This document shows positions 22,431-25,401 of a DNA stretch of 52,615 bases, one piece after another (position 1 is the stretch's first letter; each line of letters opens with the position of its first letter). Below the pieces are notes generated by a model. That model was given only the letters and a program-made list of their open reading frames with translations. It was not told the DNA's origin and searched no databases. Made by a program: the position numbers and the translations under genes. Source of the stretch: Escherichia phage vB_EcoP_Bp7; sequence record NC_079181.1; one strand, given 5' to 3'.

Positions 22431-22440
22431 CTATAAATAT

Positions 22441-22465
22441 GGCTCCTTCGGGAGCCTTTAATTTT
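22441..22465 (+). terminator. intrinsic terminator
   Basis: GGCTCC-TTCG-GGAGCC hairpin followed by TTTAATTTT. Confidence 0.8.
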
Positions 22466-23501
22466 GGAGCTTACCAAAGTGAGTAAGAAACGGGTTTTGT
22501 TGCTGGTTGACGGCGACATGGTTGCATTCAGTCACTGTGCTGCTGAGGAATACGGCAAAGATTCAGAAGATATTAACTTTGCTAAGATTCAAATGTCAAT
22601 GGATTCCAAGATGGAATTCCTTGCGAAACGTGTAGGCGCTACAGAAGTAGTTACCTGCATTTCACCATCCAAAACATTCCGTAACGTCCTTGCCGAGAAT
22701 TACAAAGGCAATCGTGATGATGTTTGGCGACCAGAAAACTTGAAGAATGCGAAAGCACACCTTATGGTTGCCTGGAACGGTGTGTGGATGAAGGGTCTGG
22801 AAGCAGATGACCTCCTTGCTGTATTCGCACGTCATGAATACGAAATGACAATGGGCAAACGTAATGAGATTAAGAGCCTCAAGCGCATTGGTCCTTGCAC
22901 ATATGATGAAGTCTGGATTGCGTCGTTGGACAAAGACTTGCGACAAATCGGGCAGAATGGTGGTGCTGGTCCAGTAATTAAACATTACCAATGGGAACGA
23001 GAAACCCAGGGTATTGGTGAGAAGGTTGTAACTCCGAAGGATTACGGCGAACTCAAACTAATCATCAAGGACAATGGCAAGTCGAAGAAGAAAGAAGTTA
23101 AAGGCAATGGCCCTAAATTCTTCTTGCATCAATTGCTTATCGGCGACTCAACGGATAATGTTATGGGTTGCGGAGTTCTTGAAGAAAGAATCTACAAAAC
23201 TGGTGCCAAAGCTGGTGAAACTTATTTCCGTCGTGATGGCATTGGTGCAGTTGCTTCATTCGAAATGCTGGATGGTACAACCTCCTATGCAGAAGGTTTG
23301 AAGAAAGTTATTGGTGCATATATTATGCGCTTCGGGGATGGTTGGGAACAAGAGCTGCTCAAAGTGGGCCGTCTTGTTTACATGCACCATCAAATTGAAA
23401 AGGGTAATTGTGTTCGCTTGTGGCATTACAAAAACATTAACGAATACTTTGACCTTAAAGAGAATCGTATCCTTACTCAAGAAGAGTACCTCCAGAAATA
23501 A
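22464..23501 (+). CDS. 5'-3' exonuclease / flap endonuclease (T7 gp6-like)
   Basis: N-terminal KRVLLLVDGDMVAF resembles the PIN-like metal site of 5'-3' exonucleases; likely true start GTG 22479 (GGAG 9 nt upstream). Confidence 0.65.
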   Translation: MELTKVSKKRVLLLVDGDMVAFSHCAAEEYGKDSEDINFAKIQMSMDSKMEFLAKRVGATEVVTCISPSKTFRNVLAENYKGNRDDVWRPENLKNAKAHLMVAWNGVWMKGLEADDLLAVFARHEYEMTMGKRNEIKSLKRIGPCTYDEVWIASLDKDLRQIGQNGGAGPVIKHYQWERETQGIGEKVVTPKDYGELKLIIKDNGKSKKKEVKGNGPKFFLHQLLIGDSTDNVMGCGVLEERIYKTGAKAGETYFRRDGIGAVASFEMLDGTTSYAEGLKKVIGAYIMRFGDGWEQELLKVGRLVYMHHQIEKGNCVRLWHYKNINEYFDLKENRILTQEEYLQK

Positions 23502-23512
23502 TTGGAGTTGGA

Positions 23513-24037
23513 ATGGCTTACGGTTATTGTGGAACGGAAGCCAAGTTCGTGTCTTGGCTCCAATCTGCTATTCGAAGTGTTTGGTCTAAACACCCAAGCA
23601 AACTCGCGCTAATACAATCTCGACGCATTGCATTGAAGGTTGGTGACTCAAAGAAACCAATCTTCCACATTCAATGCTACCACTGCAAGAAGTTGTATAA
23701 GCTCAAAGAGATTGAAGTAAACCACAAAGTTCAGGTTGGTGGCCTCCTTAAATTGGAAGACCTGCACCGCTTTGTGGACAACCTTCTACTGGTTCAGCCA
23801 GAAGATTTGGAATTGCTGTGTAAAGATTGTCACGGCATTATTACATACATGGAGCGATATGGTGTATCACGTCGTGATGCAGTCATTGAGAAGAAGTGTA
23901 TTGCATTTTCCAAATTAACTGACGAAGAGCAAATTGCCAAGTGCAATCTTGCCAAAATAGAGCCAGTTCCTAAAACCAAAATCGGACGCAAGAATGCTGT
24001 TCGAGAATACCTGAGAAAGAATCTTAATGTCTATTAA
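23513..24037 (+). CDS. HNH endonuclease
   Basis: CYHCKK ... EVNHK ... N ... CKDCHG (CxxC, NH, CxxCH) pattern. Confidence 0.65.
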   Translation: MAYGYCGTEAKFVSWLQSAIRSVWSKHPSKLALIQSRRIALKVGDSKKPIFHIQCYHCKKLYKLKEIEVNHKVQVGGLLKLEDLHRFVDNLLLVQPEDLELLCKDCHGIITYMERYGVSRRDAVIEKKCIAFSKLTDEEQIAKCNLAKIEPVPKTKIGRKNAVREYLRKNLNVY

Positions 24038-24782
24038 GCTCCTCGCTGATGGTACAAGATATACAAAGGCTCACGCACATGACTGGGAAGACCCAAACTG
24101 TCTTATTCGTGGTCGATGCGAATTGTACATCAAAATTGACGGCATACGAGCGATTCGTAATGCTTCTGGTGAGGTATGGAGCCGCAACTCTAAACCTCTC
24201 CCTCACTGCGACCATCTCAAATTTAAAGATGCAGAAATCTTTCGCGGTTCCTGGAACGAGACTTCATCTATCCTTGGGCGTATCGACCCTCCGACCATAC
24301 CGTTATCGCAAGAAAACGTTTATGAGTTGAGTGATGGTGCTGTTGACCCACGCCTGTACATCGGCTGGTGCAAGGACCCAAGCAATGAAAACCTTAAGGC
24401 ATTGATGGATAAATATCTGGCGCTTGGTCATGAAGGTATCATTGTCCGCGATGCAAAAGGTAAATGGTGGAAGATTGTACCATATAAATATGCCGATGTG
24501 AAGATTACTGGTATGAAAGAAGGTACTGGTGCTCTTAAAGGTATGTGCGGTTCTATCTCCTCGAACTACGGCAGTGCCGGTTCAATGGTGAAAGATTGTC
24601 TGGCAGACCACGGTGTTCCAGAATCTAACACATTGATTCGTAAGTGGTTGTGGGAACATCGCCACGAGCTAGTTGGTTCGATTATGCAAGTTCGGTATCG
24701 TGAGAAGACAGAAGCTGGTAAGTTCCGGTTCCCGTCACTCGTTCGTTTACGTGCAGACAAAAGTGAGGAAAGTTTTGATTAA
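24027..24782 (+). CDS. ATP-dependent ligase-like nucleotidyltransferase (251 aa)
   Basis: Motif I KIDGIR, motif IV-like EGIIVRD, motif V-like KWWKIV; overlaps the HNH gene end by 11 nt. Confidence 0.65.
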   Translation: MSIKLLADGTRYTKAHAHDWEDPNCLIRGRCELYIKIDGIRAIRNASGEVWSRNSKPLPHCDHLKFKDAEIFRGSWNETSSILGRIDPPTIPLSQENVYELSDGAVDPRLYIGWCKDPSNENLKALMDKYLALGHEGIIVRDAKGKWWKIVPYKYADVKITGMKEGTGALKGMCGSISSNYGSAGSMVKDCLADHGVPESNTLIRKWLWEHRHELVGSIMQVRYREKTEAGKFRFPSLVRLRADKSEESFD

Positions 24783-25401
24783 GCGATTAGCTGTTATTCT
24801 CAATGGACCTCCTGGCTGCGGCAAAGACACCATTGCAAATAAGATTGTTGCTGCTGAGGAACCTTACTTCCTCGGCAGACGCAAATTCATTAAACACCAG
24901 TTTAAGGATGCACTGTATGAGCATACTGCCAAACACTTTCAAGTTGATGTGGACAAGTTTATTCACTACGCTTCGGACCGTGACCTCAAAGACTCTATCT
25001 CCCTTGCAGGTCTTGGTGGCAGAACACCTCGTCAGGCTCTTATTCACGTTAGCGAAGATGTGTATAAGCCTCGCCACGGACAAGACTACTTCGGTAAGGT
25101 TGAAGCTGCTCGTGTTAAAGAACTCGCGGGGCGTATGGGTGGCATTATTAATGTCATTTATCCCGATGGCGGTTTTGGTGATGAAGTCGTTGCCATTGAG
25201 TCTGCTTATGATTTTGTCCTCGTTGTGCGTTTGCATCGTGATGGTTTTGATTTCACGGGCGATTCTCGCAGATACATCAACCTCCCAGACACACCTACCC
25301 GCGTAACAGTGGACGAACATTTAGTTGATGGTAAAGTGGGTGATTCTGTATTCAAAGTGTTCAACTGGATTGAACGCGTAACCTATAAAGTAGAGAAATA
25401 A
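24775..25401 (+). CDS. P-loop nucleotide/polynucleotide kinase-like protein
   Basis: Walker A ILNGPPGCGKDT; probable TTG start at 24775 (GAGG 6 nt upstream) or GTG at 24763. Confidence 0.6.
   Translation: MIKRLAVILNGPPGCGKDTIANKIVAAEEPYFLGRRKFIKHQFKDALYEHTAKHFQVDVDKFIHYASDRDLKDSISLAGLGGRTPRQALIHVSEDVYKPRHGQDYFGKVEAARVKELAGRMGGIINVIYPDGGFGDEVVAIESAYDFVLVVRLHRDGFDFTGDSRRYINLPDTPTRVTVDEHLVDGKVGDSVFKVFNWIERVTYKVEK

Follow-up and report, generated by a model that had tools for sequence, protein, structure and literature searches.

Within the 52,615-base-pair (bp) stretch of phage DNA analyzed here (Escherichia phage vB_EcoP_Bp7, NC_079181.1; the whole stretch is called the window below), a 251-amino-acid protein is encoded immediately downstream of an HNH nuclease gene. 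The window phage is a phiEcoM-GJ1-like coliphage of the family Chaseviridae. Comparative analysis indicates that the 251-residue protein is very probably a functional two-domain ATP-dependent DNA ligase, as judged from its conserved sequence features, and that its HNH neighbor is a conserved core gene of these phages. Overall the ligase gene is an ordinary one with a single interesting variant feature: Val151 occupies the position of the second motif V lysine, and it is accompanied by a basic residue, Arg225, in the C-terminal oligonucleotide-binding (OB) domain. We regard it as possible, though short of an even chance, that in a recurrent sub-lineage of the family holding the smallest known DNA ligases (205–260 amino acids) this "essential" lysine has been handed to a basic OB residue, Arg225, so that the active site would be completed across the domain hinge. 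We found no description of such an arrangement for any polynucleotide ligase.

The assignment as a ligase is supported by several independent comparisons. The window ligase has the very sequence annotated as DNA ligase in phages flopper and Bp10 (100% identity) and shares 93% identity with gp42 of phiEcoM-GJ1; since the gene already carries this annotation, the finding as first stated is ordinary. Residues 16–248 match PHROG 114 (ATP-dependent DNA ligase; E = 9e-38), and residues 166–242 score above the gathering score of the Pfam DNA-ligase OB domain PF14743 (29.3 versus 28 bits). A profile of 25 homologues matched the solved ligases Pmar-Lig (3e-15), Rhizobium phage ligase (8e-12), T7 ligase (4e-9), and ChVLig (2e-7), and an AlphaFold2 model based on the 25-homologue alignment (predicted local distance difference test, pLDDT, 93.5; predicted template modeling score, pTM, 0.81) places strands and helix in the order expected for a nucleotidyltransferase (NTase) domain followed by an OB barrel. 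The ratio of nonsynonymous to synonymous substitution rates (dN/dS) is 0.07–0.08 against the orthologues of Yersinia and Erwinia phages, indicating strong purifying selection. Together with the PHROG 114 match and the identity to annotated phage ligases, this ratio places the finding far outside chance. Were the protein an RNA ligase, a capping enzyme, or a nucleotidyltransferase of another kind, the NTase fold and motifs I–V would be present as well, as these are common to the superfamily, and the Pfam NTase model does fall below its threshold; we consider such an identity barely credible. The sequence-only reading of this DNA had called the product a ligase-like nucleotidyltransferase on the strength of motifs I (KIDGIR, residues 36–41), IV (EGIIVR, 136–141, followed by D), and V (WWKIV, 147–151, preceded by K), and the reading frame, these motifs and their placement, and an 11-nucleotide overlap with the HNH gene were all found as it described.

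Motifs I, III, IIIa, IV, and VI and a C-terminal OB domain, the features by which ATP-dependent DNA ligases are recognized, are all present (Table 1). Conservation was counted in 146 full-length family representatives. In motif I, K36 is kept in 143, D38 in 142, G39 in 144, and R41 in 100, and in motif VI, R242 is kept in 143, D244 in 145, and K245 in 140; the corresponding counts for motifs III, IIIa, and IV are given in Table 1. K149 of motif V is Lys in 130 representatives and Arg in 15.

The sequence-only reading had also remarked that the protein is shorter than the roughly 300-residue minimal viral ligase and guessed that the OB domain was reduced or missing. The shortness is real (251 amino acids, with a trimmed NTase domain of about 152), but OB loss is not its cause, as the OB domain is complete and only the latch is absent. 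To locate the missing segments, motif positions were compared with those of ChVLig, for which the reference sequence was identical to PDB 1p8l/2q2t, and of T7 ligase as given in GenBank. Motifs I, III, IIIa, IV, V, and VI start at residues 36, 68, 98, 136, 147, and 240 in the window ligase, at 27, 65, 96, 161, 184, and 291 in ChVLig, and at 34, 91, 147, 217, 236, and 347 in T7 ligase. Relative to ChVLig, the window ligase is 6 residues shorter between motifs I and III, 27 between IIIa and IV, 12 between IV and V, and a net 14 between V and VI, where the OB latch is absent. Its small size thus comes from deleted NTase surface elements and the missing latch, not from loss of the OB domain.

On functional grounds, the window ligase ranks with the minimal ATP-dependent DNA ligases of the ChV, T7, and Lig E kind. 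ChVLig (PBCV-1, 298 amino acids; PDB 2q2t/1fvi) is 47 residues longer and has Lys188 where the window ligase has Val; its OB latch spans about 27–30 residues, ChV residues about 202–231 have no counterpart in the family profile alignment, and the distance from motif V to motif VI is 93 residues in the window ligase versus 107 in ChVLig; having no latch, the window ligase is not of the ChV type. T7 DNA ligase (gp1.3, 359 amino acids; PDB 1a0i) is, like the window ligase, a replication-associated minimal phage ligase, and its WWKMK aligns with the window WWKIV at every residue, but it keeps the two lysines of motif V (K238/K240) and its NTase loops are large, with 202 residues between motifs I and V versus 111; at the 225-equivalent position it has Met, as in the family consensus. 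Pmar-Lig (PDB 6rau/6rce) and the Rhizobium phage ligase (9fzx) differ in having 420–440 residues, an N-terminal DNA-binding domain, and a canonical WLKAK or WMKVK motif V. Lig E (Psy-Lig, 257 amino acids, PDB 4d05; Ame-Lig, 6gdr) resembles the window ligase in size, in its PF14743-type OB domain, and in having neither latch nor extra DNA-binding domain; Psy-Lig, described in 2014 as the smallest structurally studied ligase (PMC4220977), has an NTase domain of 176 residues versus about 152. Membership in Lig E was nevertheless rejected: the match to the equivalog model NF006592 reaches 26.5 bits against a cut-off of 200, and the N-terminus, MSIKLLADGTRYTKAHAHDWEDP, read directly, has no hydrophobic leader and so no signal peptide.

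The window ligase belongs to a large uncharacterized phage family whose members are mostly 205–260 amino acids long. Homologues at 45–92% identity number 63, of which 59 are full length and all of these 240–255 residues, the other four being shorter fragments; these full-length homologues and the dN/dS of about 0.07 rule out a truncated gene or pseudogene. The protein aligns over its full length with a small ligase family, one of two findings that the sequence-only reading had itself named as telling against it; the other, an HNH gene conserved at this site, was also observed (see below). An exhaustive profile search returned 5249 cluster representatives at E < 1e-3, of which 1037 had E < 1e-10, and the best 150 of the 5249 have a median length of 224 residues and a minimum of 205; P0207 and P0214 are among the members of 205–215 residues, and P0207 ends at motif VI. 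Named members include the ligases of Vibrio phage ICP2 (Zobellviridae, 229 amino acids), K437-type vibriophages (248), Tawavirus JSF7 (256), and Vibrio phage 1.021.A (255, annotated only as "OB-fold protein"). A survey devoted to minimal ligases was limited to proteins of 250–370 amino acids, classed by Pfam domains (PMC8455567), and the greater part of this family is shorter than that. To our knowledge, neither a large family of ligases shorter than 250 amino acids nor a variant motif V paired with a co-varying basic OB residue has been described. Several members are mislabeled in current records: the ligase of Vibrio phage 1.021.A (L018 1950-2717) appears as "nucleic acid-binding, OB-fold protein" and that of K437b (L005 2486-3232) as "hypothetical", while in E. 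coli phage PJNS034 (L017 about 2000-2669) only the C-terminal 158 residues of the ligase open reading frame (ORF) are called and the exonuclease coding sequence overlaps its N-terminal part.

Motif V is the site at which the window ligase departs from the canonical pattern. The family consensus, wlKvKp, lines up position by position with T7 WWK238-M-K240-P and ChV LLK186-M-K188, and the window sequence at this site is WWK149-I-V151-P; the two-lysine form (LLKxK) is therefore lacking. Inspection of the raw sequence segments showed the alignment to be unambiguous. Lys occupies position 151 in 119 of the 146 representatives and Val in 25; one has Ile there and one Ser. According to a review, the T7 and Chlorella virus ligases need both motif V lysines to adenylylate and to seal nicks, and a cross-link forms between T7 K240 and the nick's 5' nucleotide (PMC4609770). 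Our literature search turned up no published account of a DNA ligase in which the second motif V lysine is missing.

Only one other alignment column separates the Val151 set from the Lys151 set, namely position 225 (VRY-R225-EKT), which is Arg in 84% of the former and Met in 90 of the 119 members of the latter. Across 164 sequences, a basic residue (Arg or Lys) stands at 225 in 35 of 35 that are without Lys151 versus 6 of 129 that have it, and five of these six have Arg rather than Lys at 149. When any alteration of motif V is counted, position 225 is basic in 40 of 50 altered sequences versus 1 of 114 that keep the canonical K-x-K. A third form of motif V, W-Y-R-V-K-P, in which the first lysine is replaced by Arg, the second is kept, and 225 is Lys, was observed in P0120, P0158, P0163, P0188, and Vibrio phage 1.021.A (L018); this Arg-first state may be an evolutionary intermediate.

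The loss of Lys151 was mapped onto a neighbor-joining tree built without the three columns concerned, which required about 6 parsimony changes. Representatives P0096 and P0108 (KV/K) and P0145 (KI/K) are independent cases nested among canonical KK/M neighbors, and judging from these placements the loss arose at least four times. Fisher's exact test for 151 versus 225 gives 7e-30 with phylogeny ignored, and for that reason a fairer gauge is how many times the loss arose independently, at least four. Searching proteins a second time, with a profile of 141 sequences, brought in just about 15 further family members; most of the weight of the covariation is therefore carried by the 150 representatives.

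The conserved motifs and purifying selection support, by homology with known enzymes, an active ligase using the standard three-step mechanism, which would seal nicks during phage DNA replication and recombination. In the first step, K36 of motif I is predicted to attack the ATP alpha-phosphate to form ligase-AMP, while R242, D244, and K245 of motif VI, carried on the rotated OB domain, would orient the pyrophosphate; AMP would then be moved to the nick's 5'-phosphate, and attack by the 3'-OH would complete sealing. In the OB fold, strands beta1 and beta4 pair in an antiparallel manner. It follows that residue 225 should lie beside the start of beta1 (residue 154), three residues past Val151 at the domain hinge. 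From this position, Arg225 could supply the missing positive charge near the AMP and the nick phosphate in place of Lys151. We give a functional replacement of the motif V lysine by Arg225 close to, or a little under, an even chance.

Several points weigh against an active ligase of this kind. The Pfam NTase model PF01068 scores 16.3 bits, below its threshold of 26.2, all NCBIfam ligase models fall below their cut-offs (NF006592 being the best), and our literature search found no biochemical study of any member of the 205–260-residue family. With a lysine regarded as essential missing, ligase activity could be reduced or altered. The predicted nearness of Arg225 to the active site derives from OB-fold topology and covariation, and exchanging K/M for V/R might be a trade of packing or charge that plays no direct part in catalysis. 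This last possibility is a serious rival to a role for Arg225, if a rather unlikely one: the covariation would be purely structural or phylogenetic, the change from Lys plus Met to Val plus Arg would preserve hinge packing, and K149 alone would suffice for catalysis. By topology both 151 and 225 lie near the interdomain linker, and most Val151 sequences fall in a few related clades. Moreover, in the Pmar-Lig structures the residue contacting the AMP alpha-phosphate before step 3 is K340 (PMC6698739), which by our own residue count would be the first motif V lysine, equivalent to K149. A swap of this kind is harder to reconcile with the presence of Arg or Lys at 225 in each of the independent origins, of which there are at least four, and the frequency of basic residues at 225 in altered compared with unaltered motif V ties this position to motif V charge more than to side-chain volume.

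A more drastic reading takes the protein for a pseudo-enzyme or for a ligase that is crippled or depends on a partner; without the second motif V lysine it could not efficiently adenylylate itself or seal nicks, and it would either need another factor or have drifted to non-catalytic DNA binding. Val151 does replace the lysine (T7 K240, ChV K188) reported as essential (PMC4609770), and the NTase domain is trimmed heavily enough to fall below the Pfam and NCBIfam thresholds. Against this, all other catalytic residues are near-invariant, dN/dS is about 0.07, and the Val151 state is old, being spread over Chaseviridae, Tawavirus JSF7, and the K437-type vibriophages. Furthermore, the invariable presence of a basic residue at 225 wherever the lysine is lost is the pattern expected for compensation rather than decay. 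We therefore consider loss of ligase function improbable and favor an active ligase, in which Arg225 may compensate for Lys151.

The gene upstream of the ligase encodes a 174-residue product that matches PHROG 1985 (HNH endonuclease; E = 2e-59) and carries an invariant CxxC...H71...D98...CxxCH107 beta-beta-alpha-metal signature, the core feature of such nucleases. The sequence-only reading had proposed that this gene inserted between the exonuclease and ligase genes. Instead, it lies between the same two genes, with an overlap of 11 or 4 nucleotides kept, in Yersinia phage PYps3T, Erwinia phage Y2, and Proteus phage Myduc, and 44 records align across the whole exonuclease-HNH-ligase-kinase block, each of the matches listed being one unbroken piece. 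At an identity of at least 60%, 79 phage records hold the ligase and 79 the HNH protein. HNH identities of 91%, 72%, and 67% track ligase identities of 91%, 76%, and 73%, and the HNH dN/dS of 0.07–0.13 reflects purifying selection. In Aeromonas phage PVN03, of the other Chaseviridae subfamily, an HNH homologue (43% identity) directly follows the exonuclease and the ligase lies two ORFs further. In every Chaseviridae genome examined, of both subfamilies, the HNH gene occupies the identical site after the exonuclease, and the sporadic presence or absence with variable insertion sites typical of homing was not seen among these genomes. The shared site, whole-block alignments, divergence in step, and PVN03 synteny together argue that the HNH gene is not a recent insertion. 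From these comparisons the HNH gene appears to be a vertically inherited core gene paired with the exonuclease, and the proposed insertion is not supported. In the PYps3T record, the HNH gene (L001 1987-2511) is mislabeled "deoxynucleoside monophosphate kinase".

The pairing extends beyond Chaseviridae. An HNH homologue follows a same-strand exonuclease, with 0–2 small ORFs between them, in PaP1 (Pakpunavirus), psageK4e (Otagovirus), G1 (Nankokuvirus), and ICP1, and the same layout is found in Vibrio phage qdvp001, Acinetobacter phage BS46, and the phi92-like phage W22. Most of the HNH-paired exonucleases outside Chaseviridae belong to PHROG 107, and a PHROG 107 exonuclease followed by a PHROG 1985 HNH gene occurs in 9 of 11 sampled phage lineages (both Chaseviridae subfamilies counted), often with overlapping stop and start codons; the exceptions are Shewanella phage 1/40 and Xanthomonas phage DES1, the latter with a partial match. 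Homologues of the HNH protein are present in 590 phage records altogether. Our literature search found nothing on this pairing of exonuclease and HNH genes. By these gene orders, the conserved unit appears to be the exonuclease plus the HNH gene, with the ligase as a variable neighbor. The PVN03 ligase (301 amino acids) was rejected as an orthologue, having no significant BLASTP similarity and matching the family profile only in its OB domain, and within Chaseviridae the ligase seems to have undergone either replacement or extreme divergence. This PVN03 ligase (L007 4745-5650) has a canonical motif V (MKIK) and Met at the 225-equivalent position.

The idea of a mobile homing endonuclease inserted between exonuclease and ligase draws on the many GenBank records that call members of this HNH family homing endonucleases, and other HNH genes in this phage group are indeed polymorphic, three HNH ORFs of phiEcoM-GJ1 being absent from ST32 (PMC6266442). 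PYps3T, in addition, has an extra ORF that the window is without, and in relatives outside Chaseviridae a ligase of the same family is preceded by other genes. Set against the constant site and 4- or 11-nucleotide overlap in Escherichia, Yersinia, Erwinia, and Proteus phages, and the recurrence of HNH after exonuclease in Nefertitivirinae and in the seven phages named above, from PaP1 to W22, these points leave homing very improbable. The HNH protein could plausibly be an endonuclease VII-like structure-specific nuclease rather than a mobile homing endonuclease, a function suggested by comparison that we hold only tentatively, and as the less likely outcome. It differs from T4 endonuclease VII and the phage HNH nucleases of GVE2 and Gme in having no Pfam Endonuclease_7 match and a sub-threshold HNH profile score, and it carries an additional helical region at its N-terminus and a C-terminal part to which helical domains of the SAP/LEM type match. 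In ICP2, the gene upstream of the ligase encodes a T7-type endonuclease I resolvase (PF05367), a placement that hints by analogy at a structure-specific role for the HNH protein. With no BLASTP similarity to it, the ICP2 gene was rejected as an HNH homologue.

All long credible ORFs of the window lie on the plus strand, and a tRNA scan of the window found no tRNA genes. A 2.9-kilobase block at the ligase locus is 94–98% identical to TH53, EcoM1, SA91KD, flopper, ST32, Bp10, and phiEcoM-GJ1. The genes run in the order DNA polymerase, single-stranded DNA-binding (SSB)-like protein, 5'-3' exonuclease, HNH nuclease, ligase, deoxynucleoside monophosphate (dNMP) kinase, and dUTPase, with gaps or overlaps of at most 11 nucleotides from the exonuclease to the dUTPase, and this tightly packed cluster is probably translationally coupled. 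The HNH/ligase overlap, ATGTCTATTAA (24027-24037), places the ligase ATG inside the final HNH codons. The dNMP kinase most likely starts at a TTG at 24775, after a GAGGA Shine-Dalgarno sequence, and so overlaps the ligase stop by 8 nucleotides (24775-24782); an alternative start at 24673 gives the longer form found in the mechanical ORF list, and the PYps3T annotation is also longer. Between its SSB-like gene and exonuclease, PYps3T has an extra 142-residue ORF (L001 532-960), annotated "endonuclease VII" with no Pfam or NCBIfam match, where the window has only a 33-nucleotide spacer (22431-22463). This ORF, not the HNH gene singled out by the sequence-only reading, is the real presence/absence polymorphism near the locus.

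Table 1. Positions in the window of the ligase gene, its predicted functional elements, and neighboring genes
Feature	Position	Strand	Supporting observation
ATP-dependent DNA ligase coding sequence, 251 amino acids plus stop, ATG start	24027..24782	+	
Trimmed nucleotidyltransferase (adenylation) domain, residues 1-152	24027..24482	+	Motifs I-V mapped; fold matches ligase NTase domains
Motif I KIDGIR, residues 36-41; K36 predicted AMP-attachment lysine	24132..24149	+	Aligns with T7 K34 and ChV K27
Motif III FKDAEIF (E70)	24222..24242	+	E70 in 145/146
Motif IIIa VYEL (Y99, predicted adenine stacking)	24318..24329	+	Y/F in 143/146
Motif IV EGIIVR, residues 136-141	24432..24449	+	E136 in 144/146, G137 in 146/146
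Variant motif V WWKIV, residues 147-151; K149 kept, Val151 at T7 K240/ChV K188 position	24465..24479	+	Aligned to T7 WWKMK and ChV LLKMK
Complete OB-fold domain, residues 153-251, without latch	24483..24779	+	
Arg225, just after OB strand beta4	24699..24701	+	Co-varies with motif V lysine loss
Motif VI RFPSLVRLRADK (R242, D244, K245)	24726..24761	+	Conservation counts in text
HNH (beta-beta-alpha-metal) nuclease gene, conserved, 174 amino acids	23513..24037	+	Stop overlaps ligase start by 11 nucleotides
5'-3' (FEN-type) exonuclease, conserved upstream partner of HNH gene	22464..23501	+	Pfam PF02739 E = 1e-8; PHROG 107 E = 3e-62
dNMP kinase, TTG start behind GAGGA	24775..25401	+	PHROG 139 E = 9e-38; start as tabulated for ST32 ORF46 (PMC6266442)

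The shortest members of the ligase family, at 205 amino acids, lie below any characterized ligase that we found (Psy-Lig, 257; ChVLig, 298). This 205–260-residue family, missed by curated NTase models, shows to what extent the catalytic core of a ligase can be cut back, a question of importance for enzyme engineering. The recurrent change of Lys151 to Val together with Met225 to Arg or Lys amounts to a clean natural experiment that bears on what the second motif V lysine does and on how plastic the active site is. In addition, the recurrence of the exonuclease-HNH pair in unrelated phage groups suggests that it is a functional nuclease module whose members are mislabeled as homing endonucleases in current annotations.

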